DNA of 64,000 nt from Leucoraja erinacea (lineage: Eukaryota): positions 14,074,001 to 14,138,000 of the forward strand of contig NC_073411.1 in assembly GCF_028641065.1 (NCBI RefSeq), read 5' to 3'. The notes beneath the pieces were generated by a model that saw only the letters and a program-made list of their open reading frames with translations, made no database searches and was not told where the DNA came from. Within the stretch, counting starts at the first letter, position 1; each line of letters begins with the position of its first letter. The position numbers and the translations under genes are program-made. Positions 1,148 through 54,524 of the stretch are shown piece by piece.

Positions 1148-4100
1148 CTGTGGATAAAAGACATATTGCTTGTAAAGATAAGTTTAATTTCACTCAAAAA
1201 GCCACCTTCTATGCATGGACTTGGCTAATGTAAATTGATGATCTGGGGAAGCAGAGTGGGAGATTTGCTAAAACAGATCAAGAAGAATATTCCCTGAAGT
1301 ACACAGACCTCCATTAATATCCAAGATGTTTCTTGCATCTGATGAAAGATTTTGAATCTGAAGCTTTAACTGTTTCTCTTTCCCCATTTATTCTTATTTC
1401 AGATTTTCCAGCACCTACAAATCTTTGATTTTCATGTCTTCCACATGCTCTTCTAAATTAGCACAAAGCTCAAATTAGCCCTATAACCCAAGCAGCATTC
1501 TAGTAAATCTCCTCTGCACCCTCTCGAAAGCCTCCATATCTTTCCTGTGTAATGGGACAAATCGAACTGCATGCAATATTCCAAATGCGGCCTAACCAAA
1601 GTCCGATAGAGCTGCATCATATTATTGGATGTGCATACTTTGTTTTAACCAGTATAAAGATCTGCTTACTGAATCCCTTATGTTGCAATAAGGATAAACA
1701 AAAAGCTTGCATGTTTGCCTATTATTAAAATATGCTATTGCGGCAAGAAACAGCTTGCAGCTCCACCAAGTGGCCGTATCCATGACATTCAGAATTATAT
1801 TGCACATTTAACAGACAAAAACATCCTAAGTCACAAACGGAAACATATTCAACAAAATCTGACATTGATCTATGCAAGGAACCTTCAGGGCATATTACAT
1901 GTAAGTTGGTTAAAGAGGTAGATTTGGAAAAACATCTTGGGAGGAAAAAGACAAAAGGTCTAGGGAGGGAATTCCAGAGCTTGGGCCTTGGACATTTAAA
2001 TATATCAAAGCAGCCAGCATCATTATTACCCCATCAGGATAGAGGAATTTGCAGATATAGAGAGAGACTAGGCCGCAAAGCGATGTGAAAACATGGTTGG
2101 CAACTTGAGGTACTGCATAACTAGGAGCCAATAAATGGCAGCAATGAGTGAGTCAAGCCTAGAGGCAGCACTCTAGGGGGGTGGGGAAGAGGACCAAAAT
2201 TAATTAACCTCGACCACAACGTCTGCTGTAACTCTAAACATGACACTGCTTTAAAAAAAGACTAACGAATGACAGCAGAATATGGGCTGACAGTAGCATC
2301 ACCGTATGTACCTTGTGTAGAGGAGTTGCGCCGTCATCATCTGTGATAGCAGGGGTGGCTCCATAGGACAGCAGCAGCTTGAGCACAGGGAGGTGGCCAC
2401 AGTAGGCAGCTCTGTGAAGTGGAGTTGCCCCTCCTTTAGTCTGAGCATTACTGTTTGCTCCATTCTTCAGCAGATACTCGCAGATCTTATAATCACCACG
2501 GCGACTGGCATAGTGCTTTGAATAAAAGTACAGAGATAATTTGGACGGAGTATTCAGTGGAAATATAAATCTTCCTGCCCATAATTATCTTCCCCTTTCT
2601 ACTGAATCTACTAGTTTTTTAAATAAATGATAAACCCACATGACCTATCCTTCCCATGATGTCTCCATGAAAGAGACCAATAGTTGGTTGTTCCAACTGT
2701 TCCACAGACTATGGTAAATGTATCCAATACAGGAATTATCATTCCCTTTTGAAAGTGACTTGTTTAGCTTCCCCCATGCCTGCAATCCAGACACTTACAT
2801 TCTTCTTTAAAACCTTCCAACTTGCATTAGTTCAGAGAAAAATCTTTCTTCCCTACAACTGCACTCTGTGCCATGTGCAAAATGTATGTCATTTTCTCAT
2901 CTAACCTATCGTGAGAGCACTTCTCAGGCACCAAGGGGGCAAGGACAGCAGGCTGATGGGAATATCGTGAGTTATATAGTATGGAACAGGCCATTCAGCC
3001 CAACACATCCATACTAACCAATGGAAATATCTGGACTTGAAAAATAAATTGCTGTTCCTTCTCCATTGCACAGCGTAAATACTGGAACACACTACCCAAA
3101 GCATTGCCCACATCCTGAACAAAACAAAAGGAAAAACTAGATAGACACAAAATGCTGGAGTACCTCAGCGGGACATACAACATCTCTGGAAAGAAGGAAT
3201 GGGTCGAGAGCCTCCTTCAGACCCGAAATTGCAGACCTGAAACATCACTCATTCCTCTCCAGCGATGCTGTCCGTCCTGCTGAGTTACTCCAGCATTTTG
3301 TGTCTATCTTCAGTGTTAACCAGCATCTTCAGTTCCTTCTTACAAAAGAAAAAACGTACATTCTTAATTCTATTGAAGCCTCCTGTTAACTGGTCCGCAG
3401 TGCTCGAAGGGGAACTCTAGCTTCTCTTCCTGGATAACTTCACTTCCTCATCTCTGAAACCATAGTGCAAAATCTTCACATGGTCCTCTAATGCCAATAA
3501 CATGCTTCCAATAGCGCGATGTGTGGAATTAGTAACAATATTTCATCTCAAAGCTTTTTTTTTTAAATAAAAGTTGAGGATAACCTTTTTGCTGTCATAC
3601 TCAATGATTTCATTAATAAAACAAGGGCTGCAAATGCTTTTCTGAACAATCTTCTTATCCTTTCTCGTCCTTTTGCAGAGATTCAAGTAAAAGCCCTGGG
3701 ACATGATCACAGTGAATGGTGATGCTGGCTCGAAGGGCTGAATGGCCTACTCCTGCACCAATTGTCTATTGACAGACATTCAGCTGGTTTTTCATGTCTT
3801 TGAGTGATCAATTTAAAAATAGCATGGAAAGGTTAACCTGGATGAAAAATACCTTCAAAGAAAACTTGAGGAACAAATGTTTACCCTGCCAAAATAATAA
3901 TGAAAGAGCAATTTGCAAAACATTCTGGGGGAGCTCCACCAGGTGACTCATGGAATTTCTATTCTAAATGGATTATATATTTAAAAATCATGATATAAAT
4001 TGGATGCAAATGTGTTGTTTTTTTACATCACATCCCCAAGATCAGAATTGCTCTGACTTTCCTCAATTACTTTTTTAACTGTCTGTCCAAAGATAATACT

Positions 4101-5581
4101 TCACATCCCCTCCACCATCAAATCACTCGACTGTGAGTTAAATTAGTTTACAATGAAGATCACCTTGTAAAGTATTAGCTCACCAACGCTGTGTAGCCCG
4201 ATCGATCAGGTGAATTTGGATCGGTCCCTTTTTCCAGAAAATTCTGCACCCTGCCGAGTTCACCATTACAGGCTGCTGACCAGATGCCTACATCAAGGGA
4301 AGAGGAAATATTCAGGCAGGTAATTTCCCAGTTGTATATCGAATAGAACTTACTCCATGTAACTCTCCCATTGAACAATGTACACTTCCTGCCCAATTGC
4401 AAATTAGCTACAACCACATGCAACAAACTCCACGACCTAAACAGCCTGCTCCTAGACTGCTGAGGACCATACAATCTCCCCTCACCCATGATGCCTGTAA
4501 AGTTGCTTTATATTTATATTGCTGACTAGAGCCTTGATAGAGAGAACTTTGGCCTGGGAGAGTGTGAAACAGTCGTTTTACTCATCTTGACAATGGATTT
4601 ACAGCATTATTGGTATCTCTCCAGCGCTTTGAGGTGTCTGTTGTTTGAAGGACGATCACTGCTGCCTAGTGAACCATGGGCTAGTGAAAGCTGTGGGCTT
4701 TGGATTAGAGGCCTTGATCTTGGCAATTCTCTTTTTCAGTAAAACTATGTTTTCTCAGGCGGATAATCGCTTACTCAAGTGGACACAGAAGATTCCAAAG
4801 AACTATTAGGTAGACACAAAATGCTGGAGTAACTCAGCAGGACAGGCAGCATCTCTGGAGAGAAGGAATGTGTGACCTTTTGGGTCGAGACCCTTATTCA
4901 GACTGATGTCTCGACCCAAAACCATCCCCAACCCGTCTCCCATTACTTCTCTCCAGAGATGCTGCCTGACCCGCTGAGTAACTCCAGCATTGTATGTCTA
5001 CCTTCGATTTAAACCAGCATCTGCAGTTCTTTCCTACACAAAAAAAAACATTAGATGAGAAAGAGGGGATTTGGTGCTGCCGTGGCCAATATTTATCTCT
5101 CTAATATCCTCAGAGGTACAGCATGCCTATGAAACAGCCAGGAATATTCTGTGATTCACAAAATGAAAGTGAAAGTTCTACCTTTAATTCAACATGCATA
5201 TGTAACCGTGTAGATACGCTGCCCACCCACAGAGGGAATGTTGAGGAGAAATCAATGCAATGTTTGACGCTGTCAACATTACTGATATACTGGGCGAGGT
5301 GGGAGATTGTAACCTTCATGTTGACCGCCCTGTTTTGACGAACGCAACCAACCCGGCGTGCACAATCAAATAAGATCAAATAGAACAAGTTGTCCTACAA
5401 CTTTAGGCTGTGCACGCCATGCGCAAGAAGAAGATATACTGGACCACTGGGGGAGTCAAAGCTTGAATGGTTTTGTACCTCTGTCAAAATCCATTTCCTC
5501 TAATGTCTGCTGTACACTTCTTGGGACTGAGGAGTCAATAGAACAGCAGGTACAATCCAGACTATGGCTAGCCGAGGCCAT
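992..5581 (-). CDS. ANKRD39: Ankyrin repeat domain-containing protein 39; exons 5479-5581, 4184-4287, 2312-2515, 992-1147; 188 aa
   Basis: Spliced translation [92 protein letters not shown].. matches recalled vertebrate ANKRD39. All introns are GT-AG; 103+104+204+156 = 567 nt, ending in TGA. Confidence 0.95.
2312..2515 (-). CDS. ANKRD39: ANKRD39 coding exon 3 (ankyrin repeats)
   Basis: aag|CAC TAT GCC ... CAC AAG|gtacat; two ankyrin TPLH motifs. Confidence 0.95.
3141..3345. mobile_element. Inverted pair of Penelope-derived short repeats
   Basis: agacacaaaatgctggagta.. and its reverse complement ..tactccagcattttgtgtct flank a short spacer. Confidence 0.75.
4184..4287 (-). CDS. ANKRD39: ANKRD39 coding exon 2
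   Basis: tag|GC ATC TGG ... GCG TTG|gtgagc; encodes [35 protein letters not shown]. Confidence 0.93.
4808..5040. mobile_element. Inverted pair of Penelope-derived short repeats
   Basis: Same family in head-to-head arrangement, forming a ~200-nt hairpin. Confidence 0.75.
5290..5432 (+). mobile_element. 3' end of RTEX-like LINE with (AGA)n tail
   Basis: Ends ..gcgcaagaagaaga, the same tail type as the 57334-57985 element. Confidence 0.5.
5479..5581 (-). CDS. ANKRD39: ANKRD39 coding exon 1
   Basis: ATG at 5581; encodes ..[13 protein letters not shown]; donor G|gtac; upstream acceptor ctcttgcag near 5615. Confidence 0.92.
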
Positions 5582-15900: not shown

Positions 15901-17547
15901 CATAAGAAACTTACTAACCAACCCGTCTATATTTACATCCAAATTATTTAGCACAGATCTCTGCGGAACACCACTGGTCGCATACATCCAGCCTGAATGT
16001 TGTCCCTCCACCAAAACCCTCAGTCTTCTATCATTAAGCCGGTTCTGAATCCATATGATCTAGTCATTATTTATCCCATGCATCTTAATCTTCTGGATCA
16101 ACCAACAATGGGGGATTTTATCAAATTCCTTACTAAAATCCATGTAGGTAACATCCACCGTCCTACCCTCATCGATCACCTTCACCACCTCTTCAAAATC
16201 CTCGATCAAATTGGTAAAACATGACCTGCCATGTGCAAAGCCGTGCTGGCTGTCCGTAATTAACACATTCTCATCCAATTGGGAGTGAATCCCATCCCAA
16301 AGTACCCTTTCCAATAGCTTCCCAACCACTAACGTGAGGCTCACTGGCCTATAAATCCCTGGGTTCATTCTACTTCTTAAATAGAGGAACAACATTAGCT
16401 ATTCTCCAGTCCTCCAGGACCTCGCCCGTGGTTAAAGAAGATGCAAAGATGTTCTTCAAGATTGCTTACCCAATCTTCTCACTTGCCTCCCTCAATAGCC
16501 CTCTCAAATCCCATCAAGTCCTGAGAATTTATCCACCCTAATGCTCTCCAAGAGCCCCAACACCTCCTTCTTAATCTCAAATTAGTATTCTCAATTTGCA
16601 CATTAGTATTTCCAAAGTTGATGAGGTTAGAAGATGGAAGTCTGTGTTGAACTTCAAGTCATTCCAACATTATTTGGAAATTCAGTATTTAATGCAGTTT
16701 AATTTATATTCATATCTTTGCACCTACCAGTAGAATCAAAATTGATGAAATATGAGAACTCTTGCCCTAACTTCTCATCGCTAGCAAAAGCACAAATGCA
16801 TGCATAGAAGTGGATGCAATGTTTTGATGTCTCCTTTTTGTTGCTGCTGGATTTGCTGGCTTTGAAGGCCTGGCAAGAACAGTAGAACTTGTGCTCCATA
16901 ACACCTTTAGTCCTAGTTTTCTCATGGAAGGAAACGTGCAGAAATCCTAAACTGTGCTTCTGGCTAGCTTTGCACTTCACCACCATGATAGTTTTAGTGA
17001 TCCGCTGCACCAGGGGCCCACTCGATTCAGTCGCCAAGTTCCAGATAGCCTGCTTTATTTCAGTGGTCACTTGAAGAGAGTTCAACACAGAGCTCTTAAG
17101 CGTATGTGGTGTGGCTTCCATATGACATTCGACGGAAAGCTTAATATGCTGACATTGGTTCTCAGCACCTCCTTGAGAAGATACTTTGAAACACGTGGGG
17201 ACCAAGCATCGGCCTGTTATATGGGTAATAATGGTTCCCTCCACTGTCTGAATTGCCTCAGTTGTGCCCAGTTCCACAAAGCCTCTGTAGTCAGGTCCTC
17301 GATCTCGAAGTCTCACTGAGTACACCTGCGAAGAAGATCCGGTGACAATGCGGACAGCATCGACGCTGGGTTGTTGCTTTCGAGCTCCATCTCTGAAGAC
17401 AGCACCACAACTTTTGTTCTTGCAGCTCAAACCACGAGTACCATTGAATGTGCCGCACTTTGGGCACTTCTTAATTCCCCGTAAAGTAGGTTTGCCCAAA
17501 TCAGCTAAAAAAGCCGGAGTTTTCATCTTGTCTGCATGTTGTTCCAT
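9787..17547 (-). CDS. C2orf42: C2orf42 homolog (uncharacterised zinc-binding protein); exons 16728-17547, 14868-14984, 13635-13739, 12165-12272, 11741-11841, 10336-10498, 9787-9995; 540 aa
   Basis: [35 protein letters not shown].., [31 protein letters not shown].., [17 protein letters not shown].. and [32 protein letters not shown] match recalled human C2orf42. Phases are consistent; 1623 nt including stop. Confidence 0.95.
10336..10498 (-). CDS. C2orf42: C2orf42 coding exon 6
   Basis: cag|[34 protein letters not shown]|gtgagt. Confidence 0.94.
11741..11841 (-). CDS. C2orf42: C2orf42 coding exon 5
   Basis: Encodes [33 protein letters not shown]; donor |gtaggt. Confidence 0.94.
12165..12272 (-). 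CDS. C2orf42: C2orf42 coding exon 4
   Basis: Encodes [36 protein letters not shown]; GT-AG bounded. Confidence 0.94.
12945..13313 (+). mobile_element. Rex1/Babar-type LINE 3' end with (ATTC)n tail
   Basis: Encodes ..[42 protein letters not shown], then AATAAA and a microsatellite tail. Confidence 0.8.
13635..13739 (-). CDS. C2orf42: C2orf42 coding exon 3
   Basis: ttctttcag|CT GTG ... GAT G|gtgagc; encodes [34 protein letters not shown]. Confidence 0.94.
14868..14984 (-). CDS. C2orf42: C2orf42 coding exon 2
   Basis: tag|GG CTT CAG ... ACA G|gtaagc; ends [12 protein letters not shown] (basic, NLS-like, as recalled for human SKSKKRRKDE). Confidence 0.85.
15150..16580 (-). mobile_element. Degenerate CR1 LINE (RT) with embedded Penelope endonuclease fragment (~15455-15625)
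   Basis: [45 protein letters not shown] (CR1 RT); [22 protein letters not shown] (Penelope GIY-YIG C-terminus). Confidence 0.85.
16728..17547 (-). CDS. C2orf42: C2orf42 first (large) coding exon
   Basis: ORF 16699..17547; acceptor cttgtag before 17568; donor G|gtaggt after ..NFDST. Confidence 0.95.
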
Positions 17548-18436
17548 TTTTCTTATCAGATTAAAACCCTACAAGAGAACAGAGATTAAACTTGGCAAAG
17601 AAAACAAAGTAAGGCCTTAAAATAATTACACTGAAGCACACATATAAATCGGAAAAACTGGCCTCCATCAACAATAAGAACTACAATGATGGGGTAGCTA
17701 CCAGATACCAGGACAAGCTGATAATGGTTTAAAAAACGTACATGTTGCTATTAAGTAGGAGGATGGTGATGCAAGAGTTCACACAATACTTTACAGCTCG
17801 TGTAGTTTCATATAGCTACTATGTACGATACGAATTGCTTCATAGGGGCTAAGCGCCAGAATTCCTTCCCTAAACCACCTTGCCTTTTGTTTTATTTCTT
17901 AAATTGTTGCTTAAGACTTTTCGATCACTTGTCCTGATTTCTTCTCCTTGTGCTGTATAATTTTTAACATACTTTCTCCCGATTACTGACTGAATTATTG
18001 AATGAAACATCCTGGTGGTCTTGAAGGGTGCAATATAAATATGTTCCTTTTTCTTTCACCTCCTCTCATCCTTCACCTACAAACTGCATCCTGTAATATC
18101 ACCGAAAATCTAATATTTTATTGCCTTTCACATTTCCAATCTTTTTAAAGTTAAACACCATGAAATGTGCATTAAAATAAAATCAGCTAATGTATCACAT
18201 TTTCTTGTGTAAATATTTGTAATTAATATTGCTAAGCCCTGCCATAAAACTGCATTAGCAATGTGAAATACTGGTCTTCACCAGTAAGTTGTATTAATCA
18301 CAACAGAAATGCTTGAAATAGTGTTTAAAACTAAAGGATCTTTACCTATCACCTTTCATGGTCTTGAAACAACCTATAAGGTCAGTGTAGCAACTCCAGC
18401 ACTTCATAAAAAACATTTACTCAATAATGATGAGCA

Positions 18437-18910
18437 ACACCTAACATGCTCTGTAATATTTTTATTTCTCTAGTCTCCCTCTCTTCTGCTTCAGTCTGAA
18501 GAAGGGTCTCTACCTGAACCATCACCCATTCCTTCTCTCCACAGACCCACTGAGTAACTCCAGCAGTTTGTGTATGGCTGCTTTGATTTGTCGTTTACAC
18601 ATCTAACATGCTCTTAGTACCATTTCTGTGTCACTAGTCTCCCTCTCCTGTGATTCACAGTCTGAAAAAGAGTCTGGAGCCGAACCATCAGCTTTTCACA
18701 GATGCTGCCTGACCCACTGAGTAACTCCAGCAGTTTGTGTCTGTCTATTTCGATTTGTCGTTTTCACACCTTACATGCTCTTTGTACCATATATGTGTCT
18801 CTAGTCTCCTTCTCCTGTGATTCACAGTCTGAAGAAGAGTCTGGAGATAAACCAACACATTCCTTCTCTCCACAGATGCTGCCTGACCCACTGAGTAACT
18901 CCAGCACTTT
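18437..18910 (+). repeat. Three ~165-bp tandem copies of a Penelope-derived short repeat
   Basis: Units restart at ~18437, 18599 and 18766 (..acatgctct..); CTGAA(G/A)A cores at 18496, 18662 and 18829. Confidence 0.75.
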
Positions 18911-18929: not shown

Positions 18930-19325
18930 GTGAGTGACCCGCCTCCGTCGGGTTGTGATTGGCCCGGAGCCCGGGCGGGACCGGGAAGGCCGCGATCTGA
19001 TTGGCGATCCCGGTTGTCAATCATCCCCGGTGGGGTGGGGTGTGGGTGCGCACCCCCAGCAGAGCCGGCGACAGCAGCCGTGATGGCGGCGCCGCGTCAC
19101 TCGGGCCGTGGTCTGCCAACACAATGACATGTAGAATAAAGTACACGTACCTTGCTGTGGAGGTGCTTTAGCCTTCCCTCCCCCTTCTCTTCCATGTAAA
19201 CGCCCGCTCAGGGCCGGGCTCCCCTCAGACGCGCCGCCATTTCGCCTTACAAACCCGCTCGGCGCTGCGCTGTAACGACAGCGGCGATTGGCTGCCCGTG
19301 GTCACATGGGCTCAGCCCGGCCCGC
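18930..19325 (-). promoter_or_regulatory. CpG-island promoter and non-coding exon 1 of C2orf42
   Basis: GC/CpG-rich; donor AAG|GTACGT at 19151/19150; YY1-type GCCGCCATTT at ~19233; ATTGG (CCAAT) boxes near 18958, 19000 and 19287. Confidence 0.75.
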
Positions 19326-19607
19326 AGCGCCTTCTGGGATATGTAGTCCTCAACTCAGTTGGTGTCAGCCCGCCCCCAGTGCCTTCTGGGACATGTAGTC
19401 CCAACTCTTGGTCTCAGCCCGCCCCCCAGTGCCTTCTGGGACATGTAGTCCTCATCTCTGTTGGTCTCAGCCCGGCCCCCAGTGCCTTCTGGGACATGTA
19501 GTCCTCATCTGTTGGTCTCAGCCCGGCCCGCAACGCCTTCTGGGATATGTAGTCCTCAACTCAGTTGGTGTCAGCCCGCCCCCAGTGCCTTCTGGGACAT
19601 GTAGTCC
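19313..19607 (-). repeat. ~52-bp promoter minisatellite (6 units), each with a ZNF143/THAP11-type ACTACAnnTCCCA motif and a GC-box-like segment
   Basis: GCCTTCTGGGA(C/T)ATGTAGTCC starts at 19329, 19381, 19431, 19484, 19535 and 19587; further copies at 20146 and 20829. Confidence 0.9.
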
Positions 19608-20285
19608 TGTTTAAGAGGGAACTGCAGATGCTGGAGAATCGAAGGTTACACAAAAAAGCTGGAGAAACTCAGCGGGTGCAGCAGCATCTATGGAGCGAAG
19701 GAAATAGGCAACGTTTCGGGCCGAAACCCTTCTTCAGACTGATCGGGGGCGGGGGTAGGTGGGGACAAGAAAGGGAAAAGGAGGAGTAGCCCGAAGGCTG
19801 GGGGATGGGAGGAGACAGCAGGGGGGCTGAGGAAGGGGAGGAGACAGCAAGGACTAACAGAATTGGGAGAATTCGATGTTCATGCCCCCGGGGTGCAGAC
19901 TCCCCAAACGGAATATGAGGTGCTGTTCCTCCAATTTCCGGTGCTGCTCGCTGTGGCCATGGAGGAGACCCAGGACAGAGAGGTCGGGGACGGAGTGGGA
20001 GGGGGAGTTGAAGTGCTGAGCCACCGGGAGGTCAGCTTGGTTATTGCGGACCGAGCGGAGGTGTTCGGCGAAACGATCGCCCAACCTCCGCTTGGTCTCA
20101 CCGATATAGATCCTCATCTCAGTTGGTCTCAGCCTGCCCCCCAGTGCCTTCTGGGACATGTAGTCCTCATCTCTGTTGGTCTGAGTGCAGTGGAGATACA
20201 GGTGAACCTTTGTCGCACCTGGAACGACTGCTTGGGTCCTTGAATGGAGTCGAGGGGGGAGGTGAAGGGACAGGTGTTGCATCGT
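19608..20285 (-). mobile_element. Penelope-like element 3' part (GIY-YIG endonuclease + terminal repeat with hammerhead core), interrupted at ~20111-20185
   Basis: [55 protein letters not shown]; upstream CNTCPF..RFTCIS; CTGAAGA-GGGT-TTCG-GCCC-GAAACGTT at 19710-19737 (-). Confidence 0.9.
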
Positions 20286-20334
20286 TTCGCCAAACACCTC
20301 CGCTCAGTCCGCAAGAACCTACCTGAACTCCCGG

Positions 20335-20790
20335 TACATTGTTGAGTAGTGTGACATCCGCAGGGAAGAAGCTGTTCCTGGACCTCCTGGTCCAGCAACA
20401 GAGGGACCTGTAGCGCCTCCCGGATGGTAGGAGGGTAAACAGTCCATGGTTGGGGTGAGAGCAGTCCTTGGCGATGCTGAGCGCCCTTGGCAGACAACGC
20501 TTGCTTTGGACAGACTCAATGGAGGGGAGCGAGGAACCGGTGATGCGTTGGGCAATTTTCACCACTCTCTGCAGTGCTTTCCGGTCGGAGACAGAGCAGT
20601 TGCCATACCATACTGTGATGCAGTTGGTAAGGATGCTCTCGATGGTGCAGCAGTAGAAGTTCACCAGAATCTGAGGAGACAGATGGACCATTTTCAGTCT
20701 CCTCAGGAAGAAGAGACGCTGATGAGCCTTCTTGATCAGAGTTGATGTATTGTGGGTCCAAGAGAGGTAATCGGAGATGTTGACCCCTGA
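20335..20790 (-). mobile_element. Rex1/Babar-type LINE RT C-terminal fragment
   Basis: [60 protein letters not shown]. Confidence 0.85.
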
Positions 20791-21129
20791 TGTTGACCTC
20801 AGTCCGTCCCCCCCCCCCCCCCCCCAGTGGCTTCTGGGACATGTAGTCCCCATCTCTGTTGGATCCAGTGAAGATCCCACACCCTGGTTCTCCAACTAGT
20901 TTCACTGTTCATAAGATAAACATTGTCCGTAATAGTAGGTCTATCTTCGGTGAAAACCAGCATCTGCAGTTCCTCCCGCCACACTACTCGTTTCACTGTC
21001 CGTGAAAAGACACAGTCCATAAGATTGTTTATCTTCGGTGTAAACCAGAATCTGCAGTCCTCCCTACACACCACTAGTTTTACTATCCATAAGATAGACT
21101 ATCTTATGGACAGTGTCTATCTTTGGTGT

Positions 21130-48499: not shown

Positions 48500-48800
48500 G
48501 GTGGTGGGAGCGTCGTGTGAGCGCTGAGGATTCAAGGTTCTCTTCTACTGGTTAAACTAACACGGTCCTGCCTGGGGGGGGGAGAGGGTTTTAATTAAGA
48601 GGAGAGGCGGCGGAGCAGGAGCAGGAGCGGCGGGCGGAGCAGGAGCAGGAGCAGCAGCCGGAGAAACAAAGCCAGAGGAAGAAGAAGTAATAATAACTCC
48701 ACACAAGACACAGGCAGAGAAGATGGCGGCCTGGCCTGGCGTGCCACACTGCGCCTGCGCGGGCTCGCCAACCAGCGCGGCGCGCGGCCCGTCACTCAAC
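48500..48800 (-). promoter_or_regulatory. TIA1 5' UTR and CpG-island promoter
   Basis: CpG-rich; YY1 motif AAGATGGCGGC at 48720-48730; NRF1-type GCGCCTGCGC at 48751-48760; (CTCCTG)-like pyrimidine repeats in the UTR. Confidence 0.8.
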
Positions 48801-53789: not shown

Positions 53790-54524
53790 GACAATACACC
53801 CACTGGTCCTCATGACCCCAACAGGTTAAGTCTTGCTGTCTACAGACACCCTTTGGAAGGGTACGTACTGAGTAACGTCCTGCACCCTGGAAGAGCAGTG
53901 TCCAGAGTGGTTACAGTGGGTTTCTGGTGGAGGAGCAGGCAGAACATTAGGGGTTCGAGTCCAACCCCTGGGGCCCCTGTATCACATTTAGTTCAGAGAT
54001 ACAGTGCCCTTCGGCCCATCGAGTCCGCACTGACCAGCGATCCCACGCACAATAATCCCGCACACGTTTGGGACAATTTATACATGTACCAAGCCTATCA
54101 ACCTAGAGTTAGTGTTAGGGCTAGTGTTAGGGTTAGGGTTAGTGTTAGGGTTAGGGCTAGTGTTAGGGTTATGGTTAGTGTTAGGGTTTGTATAAATTGT
54201 CCCCTAGCGTGTGTGAAATAGTGTGCGGATATTCGCTGGTCACAGGCTGGGTCCACAAATGGGGGGCATCGGGGAAAGTGTGTGGGGGTGGGGGTTTGGA
54301 GAATGGGAGAAGGGGATAGAAACATAGAAATTAGGTGCAGGAGTAGGCCATTCGGCCCTTCGAGCCTGCACCGCCATTCAATATGACAATACACCCACTG
54401 GTCCTCATGACCCCAACAGGTTAAGTCTTGCTGTCTACAGACACCCTTTGGAAGGGTACGTACTGAGTAACGTCCTGCACCCTGGAAGAGCAGTGTCCAG
54501 AGTGGTTACAGTGGGTTTCTGGTG
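53790..54524. repeat. 140-bp direct duplication (53790-53929 = 54385-54524) flanking a composite insert
   Basis: Both copies read gacaatacacccactggtcc...gggtttctggtg. Confidence 0.9.
54105..54188 (+). repeat. Degenerate interstitial telomeric repeat (TTAGGG/TTAGTG/CTAGTG), ~14 hexamers
   Basis: Read directly: ttagtgttagggctagtgttagggttagggttagtg... Confidence 0.85.

Follow-up and report, generated by a model that had tools for sequence, protein, structure and literature searches.

Directly upstream of C2orf42, the skate Leucoraja erinacea carries a tandem array in which every unit repeats the same transcription factor motif. Such an array could be a dial whose copy number tunes expression of the gene, as an initial annotation of this DNA proposed, or a by-product of minisatellite turnover, and the locus raises the question of where the repeated sites came from and what, if anything, the additional copies do. 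The window analysed here is the whole stretch of 64 kb.

Organisation of the array and identity of its motif

Positions 19307–19608 form a minisatellite, called by TRF at period 53 (5.8 copies, 87% matches, 5% indels, score 457) and also at period 104. The units are 50–53 bp long, within the range of about 10–100 bp that defines minisatellites, and are arranged head-to-tail. All six carry GGACTACAT(G/A)TCCCAGAAGGC on the minus strand, which bears out the six consecutive ~52-bp units of the initial annotation. The motifs start, on that strand, at 19347, 19399, 19449, 19502, 19553 and 19605, with gaps of 52, 50, 53, 51 and 52 from U1, the promoter-proximal unit, to U6. The number of six motif copies holds for the array but not for the window, where the total is eight exact copies; the extra two, at 20152–20164 and 20835–20847, lie in detached units, U7 and U8, described below.

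From the distal to the proximal end the units fall into the types B-A-C-C′-B-A, and they diverge from one another by up to 12–13 aligned columns. U5 is of the same type as U1 and U6 is identical to U2; five distinct unit types occur among the six units. A 95-bp stretch recurs at a spacing of 206 bp with two differences, and this higher-order repeat may reflect unequal exchange or conversion. The GC-box-like element described beside each unit proved less regular, its GGGCGG core being found in only three of the six (U2, U3 and U6). No match to a G-quadruplex regular expression was found within the array. Helical phasing was considered and rejected: the spacings correspond to 4.76–5.05 turns, and about half of all unit lengths lie equally near an integer. 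A coding role was likewise rejected, the plus-strand ORF across the array giving only a sub-cutoff Pfam Sushi match (E 0.008).

ACTACAnnTCCCAGAAGGC, present on the minus strand of every array unit, is the ZNF143/THAP11 SBS2 motif. The 25-mers, all on the minus strand, lie at 19323–19347 (U1), 19375–19399 (U2) and 19425–19449 (U3), the last two overlapping the GGGCGG core, and at 19478–19502 (U4), 19529–19553 (U5) and 19581–19605 (U6). As defined in PMC3627581, the TBS is ACTACANNTCCCA, and SBS2 is a 25-bp motif that includes it. The TBS core ACTACAnnTCCCA is exact in 6/6 array units and 2/2 detached units; the 3′ SBS1 half that completes the 25-bp motif is present, as judged by string comparison only; and all eight units agree with the EMSA SBS2 probe of PMC3627581 at 17–18 of 25 positions. 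When at most one mismatch was allowed, ACTACANNTCCCA gave 10 matches in the 64 kb, 8 of them exact, where shuffled sequences averaged 1.07 and never exceeded 4; because the copies share one ancestor, this count demonstrates amplification and not eight independent matches. In the ZNF143 peak tables of PMC3627581, where one site may be counted several times (24/28 places among the matches listed), text occurrences in human and mouse respectively were 117 and 161 for TCCCAGAAGGC, 117 and 132 for the canonical 13-mer, 10 and 8 for ACTACATGTCCCA, and 6 and 26 for ACTACATATCCCA. Both ACTACAT(G/A)TCCCA forms are found among the FIMO calls of the human and the mouse tables. At the level of strings, the assignment to the ZNF143 SBS motif thus agrees with the SBS2/TBS definition of PMC3627581; the skate sites read (G/A)TCCCA, as against the TTCCCA given there for RBPJ. 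ZNF143 was absent from the cartilaginous-fish literature listings searched.

ZNF143 and THAP11 have been placed in a joint complex with HCFC1. The statement that this motif is bound by ZNF143 together with THAP11 is nevertheless disputed, as PMC3627581 describes mutually exclusive binding, with activation by ZNF143 and repression by THAP11. Given these opposite effects, even the sign of any copy-number dial is uncertain.

The C2orf42 promoter in skate and mouse

The ORF at 16699–17568 has a Pfam zf-tcix match and is 95% identical to the Pristis C2orf42 homolog. The coding part of exon 1 (19151–19195, minus strand) comprises 15 codons, followed by a GT donor, and encodes residues 1–15 of the L. 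erinacea model with 100% identity; exon 2 (16726–17568, minus strand), which contains the zf-tcix domain, encodes residues 16–296, also with 100% identity. With exon 1 mapped at 19195–19151, the array does lie directly upstream of the first exon, U1–U6 being 152–410 bp upstream of the exon-1 ATG. In the RefSeq C2orf42 models of L. erinacea and Amblyraja radiata, an in-frame upstream ATG lengthens the N-terminus by 22 residues (19151–19195 and 17548–17568, minus strand). The extension is lacking in the Rhinoraja, Pristis, Mobula and shark models compared and may be an annotation choice.

Transfer of the mouse RefSeq transcription start site would place the skate TSS at approximately 19262 and give U1 and U6 positions of about −85 and −343, respectively. 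U1–U6 then fall within 500 bp upstream of the inferred TSS, and U7 and U8 beyond it. According to PMC11754675, ZNF143 activates initiation from sites no more than 500 bases from the TSS, and such a site, at most 500 bases away, is present at 95% of the genes whose expression drops when ZNF143 is lost. The main text of PMC3627581, that of PMC11687419 and one supplement of PMC11754675 contain no mention of C2orf42 in connection with ZNF143 loss; differential-expression tables may still speak to this point. No divergent gene was found within ~1 kb, where the upstream DNA consists of retroelement pieces (Pfam on 34 of the 87 ORFs of at least 90 aa), and a coding bidirectional promoter was rejected, the next identified upstream gene being TIA1-like and on the same strand as C2orf42. 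A divergent non-coding RNA may arise at the promoter. A Staf promoter of the snRNA/tRNA-Sec type was also rejected, the window containing no Rfam match at gathering score and no tRNAs; between 18400 and 21000 Rfam gave six sub-threshold matches only. Downstream of exon 1, the CpG-rich start of intron 1 (18930–19150) contains two further CCAAT boxes (19004 and 18962, minus strand) and a GC box, and could serve as a second start region. In human, too, the ZNF143 peak is downstream of the annotated TSS.

Immediately proximal to the array, on the minus strand, lies an E-box-like CATGTG (19303–19308), at which the repeat ends. It is followed by a CCAAT box (19287–19291), GTCGTTACA (19271–19279), GTTTGTAA (19247–19254) and, just downstream of the inferred TSS, a 10-nt element (19233–19242) that we take to be YY1-like. 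YY1 is enriched downstream of the TSS (PMC11754675). The combined E-box/CCAAT/GTCGTTACA pattern, picked post hoc after the skate and mouse sequences had been viewed, has a single exact match in the window (19271–19308), compared with a mean of 0.01 in shuffled sequence at up to three mismatches. The gap of 11 nt between E-box and CCAAT box fits the preferred distance of 10–12 bp (PMC4889920).

The mouse ortholog, C87436, has a ZNF143 peak in 3/3 cell types with one SBS2 call (PMC3627581, Table S5). Compared by eye with the 401 characters of one cell of that table, the mouse promoter appears to share with skate the order SBS2, E-box, CCAAT, GTCGTTACA, GTTTGTAA, with GTCGTTACA identical. Start-to-start distances along this series are 50, 17, 12 and 27 nt in mouse and 39, 17, 12 and 25 nt in skate; E-box–CCAAT and CCAAT–GTCGTTACA spacings are thus the same, with CCAAT 11 nt past the E-box and GTCGTTACA 7 nt past the CCAAT box in both. 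Unlike skate, mouse has a canonical CACGTG at the E-box position, a single SBS2 call and no tandem array within the 401 characters. U1 occupies the position of the single mouse SBS2 and is probably the ancestral site of the array. Since the mouse ortholog has one ZNF143-bound SBS2, skate has amplified an ancestral site, and since the repeats end at the E-box, amplification was limited to the SBS2 module. In human the C2orf42 peak, found in 4/4 lines, sits 259 bp past the annotated TSS and has an SBS1 call and no SBS2 call (PMC3627581), a placement which indicates that the SBS2 site is not positionally fixed across all mammals.

We consider it likely that the array arose when the ancestral C2orf42 SBS2 was amplified locally and in tandem, with U1 the working site and U2–U6 predicted to add occupancy and redundancy with diminishing effect. 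Starting from a core of SBS2, E-box, CCAAT, GTCGTTACA and GTTTGTAA apparently common to skate and mouse, and ZNF143-bound in mouse, the skate lineage duplicated a segment of ~52 bp that reaches as far as the E-box, and then expanded it. The array would then have grown to about eight units, two of which were displaced by retroelement insertions. ZNF143 on U1, with NF-Y and an E-box factor, would promote initiation; U2–U6 would raise occupancy and provide redundancy, with a diminishing effect on output, and the array itself would be a tolerated, mildly constrained by-product of minisatellite turnover. Against this, the skate E-box reads CATGTG and not CACGTG. The earlier proposal of tandem amplification of a complete transcription factor module thus stands as to amplification, in view of the single ZNF143-bound SBS2 of mouse, but not as to completeness: besides SBS2 the unit contains just a GC-rich spacer, there is only one E-box/CCAAT core, and GGGCGG is kept in only half of the units.

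Other SBS2/TBS promoters (PMC3627581; PMC11754675; PMC11687419) resemble the skate promoter in that ACTACAnnTCCCA, with the 3′ part of the SBS, precedes a housekeeping TSS rich in CpG and adjoins GC-box and CCAAT elements. Among the rows listed in PMC3627581 some promoters have 2–4 SBS2 calls, but these sites are dissimilar and non-tandem, unlike the 6–8 near-identical head-to-tail sites of skate.

Constraint, neutrality and copy number

Among U1–U7, 0 of 14 specified motif positions vary, compared with 13 changes elsewhere (p ~0.02, with change events counted by hand and the motif defined post hoc). Over the whole 25-mer, 4 of 13 changes fall inside the motif and the difference is not significant (p 0.18). 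The sole change inside ACTACAnnTCCCA among these units affects an n position, and indels are confined to the spacer. The G-rich, CpG-bearing spacer mutates faster anyway, and the signal of selective constraint on the motif cores is therefore weak; the contrast between core and spacer could be due to slippage and CpG decay in the latter.

These data bear on a neutral reading, in which U1 is functional and U2–U8 are an unselected, possibly methylated expansion without effect. CpG o/e is 0.37 in the array compared with 0.95 at 18930–19306, a value compatible with past germline methylation; CpG-to-TpG-type changes occur in U7 and in the B and C units, retroelement insertions have been tolerated, and the constraint over the 25-mer falls short of significance. 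However, the CpG-free core motif is intact in all seven of U1–U7 with indels confined to the spacer, and intact sites 50–260 bp from an open promoter would probably be bound. We regard neutrality as possible but less likely. It overlaps with amplification of the ancestral site as favoured here, the sole difference being whether U2–U6 do anything.

The expression dial, in which the copy number of the array is polymorphic and C2orf42 transcription scales with unit number, would resemble human TRIB3. The TRIB3 promoter has a 33-bp VNTR in which, as in skate, a conserved single-copy transcription factor element has become tandem in the proximal promoter of one lineage (PMC7425993), and by its anatomy the skate array matches this design. 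In the TRIB3 case alleles of 1–5 copies are proven, effects are known from reporters and as eQTLs, with about a 5-fold gain in activity between one copy and five, and the site is a stress-inducible C/EBP-ATF element (PMC7425993). The skate array differs in its 52-bp unit, housekeeping SBS2, diverged units and higher-order structure, and is known from the sequence of one haplotype. As for the element being single-copy elsewhere, mouse has one SBS2 (by eye) and human has an SBS1 at another position. Recent turnover, as suggested by the identity of U6 with U2 and in the 95-bp repeat, would suit a dial, as would the rise of ChIP signal with SBS2 number (PMC3627581) and the L. erinacea heterozygosity of 1.6% (PMC10115646). 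Against it, one site is enough for a ZNF143 peak in mouse, and ZNF143 degradation lowered only 365 of 13,276 genes despite 4,682 peaks (PMC11754675). In human, 35,638 of 184,315 genotyped minisatellites are variable, 5,676 of them commonly, and eQTLs were found for 193 of 1,071 tested gene-VNTR pairs (PMC8096271); the figure in PMC8024321 is 163 of 10,264. These human base rates and the single sufficient mouse site make the dial plausible but unlikely. The divergence of the units also tells against it. Divergence between repeat units lowers exchange rates.

In its furthest form the proposal would be that in skates the ancestral site has become an array polymorphic in length, with as many as eight ZNF143/THAP11 sites whose cores are selected, and that this array sets C2orf42 expression by copy number and keeps the CpG island open against retroelements invading its distal end. 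This we also judge improbable. If true, it would be a natural titration series showing whether the effects of several SBS2 are additive, reach saturation, or change over from activation by ZNF143 to repression by THAP11 or back, and polymorphism would provide a ready allelic series for SBS2 dose effects. Amplification of the ancestral site offers a clean case in which a promoter site common to skate and mouse multiplied in one lineage and the E-box/CCAAT core, which is sensitive to spacing, did not. Literature listings that covered subscription journals only in small part contained no ZNF143-site VNTR, and the available portion of a preprint on CpG islands (bioRxiv 10.64898/2026.05.04.722487) holds nothing on motif number. 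The concept of promoter repeats is already established by TRIB3 and human eVNTR surveys, and the function of C2orf42 is poorly known, so the finding would be more than modest only if both variation and an effect were demonstrated.

Detached units, retroelement blocks and neighbouring features

U7, together with the tail of the next unit, lies at 20111–20185 (minus strand; SBS2 at 20140–20164) and is 96.8% identical over 63 nt to 19408–19470. U8 (20798 to ~20866, minus strand; SBS2 at 20823–20847) is more diverged, with an expanded G run and a change at one specified motif position, in the final GC. Two retroelement blocks separate these units from the array and from each other. Block 1 (19609–20110, minus strand) contains a 3′ piece of a GIY-YIG-type ORF, which we take to be Penelope-like, and a terminal repeat that recurs elsewhere in the window, and is flanked by TCCT/TCCT. 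Block 2 (20186–20797), flanked by CTGAG/CTCAG, contains an upstream piece of the same ORF type, an inverted piece (20281–20335) and a LINE-like piece with Pfam PF09004. Removal of both blocks in silico, with cut points one base off, spaced the motifs 54 and 65 apart and yielded an array that TRF called at 7.4 copies, the C run of U8 adding ~12 nt and stopping TRF. By a rough estimate, two in-register junctions would arise by chance with a probability of ~1–9%, depending on the overlap allowed. Because U7 and U8 are in register with the array and the blocks are bounded by direct repeats, there was probably an older array of about eight units, later split by retroelement insertions.

The GIY-YIG-type ORF is collinear across U7, which replaces ~11–14 of its codons. 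This arrangement is unexplained: either one complex insertion enclosed U7, or later repair copied U7 into the element. It could be taken to mean that the site arrived with a mobile element or dispersed repeat to which the unit belongs, U7 and U8 being parts of such elements, and a retroelement origin of SBS2 sites has been proposed for MLT1J in mammals (PMC3627581). In both cases SBS2 has been multiplied via repetitive DNA, but MLT1J has spread single sites genome-wide by retrotransposition (PMC3627581), whereas the skate amplification is local and tandem. The 52-bp unit was found nowhere in the 64 kb outside 19.3–20.9 kb, six aligned named relatives of the ORF have ordinary coding sequence at the U7 point, U1 runs on into the core common to mouse, and short direct repeats delimit each block in register with the array, all of which make such an origin very improbable. 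Mis-assembly of the copy number or of the B-A duplication, to which the identity of U6 and U2 might point, is barely credible against five unit types in six units, two differences within the duplicated 95 bp and 0 N in the window.

Several further features were observed in the window. A 167-bp tandem repeat of 2.2 copies at 18544–18910 includes SINE or terminal-repeat-like sequence that is also present at 19640–19745 and in many other places. This sequence presumably resembles a hammerhead core; the terminal repeat gave no Rfam hammerhead match. Downstream of C2orf42, exons of an ankyrin-repeat gene with Pfam Ank matches lie at 2234–4507 (minus strand), presumably ANKRD39. Upstream, the TIA1/TIAR-like gene occupies 25800–48500 (minus strand), an arrangement that we assume corresponds to the TIA1–C2orf42 neighbourhood in human. 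Its start has a CpG island (48500–48800) with a GGAGCA/24-bp repeat (48600–48663) and a YY1-type motif (48729). A short interstitial telomere-like (TTAGGG) array of 14 imperfect copies is present at 54103–54188.
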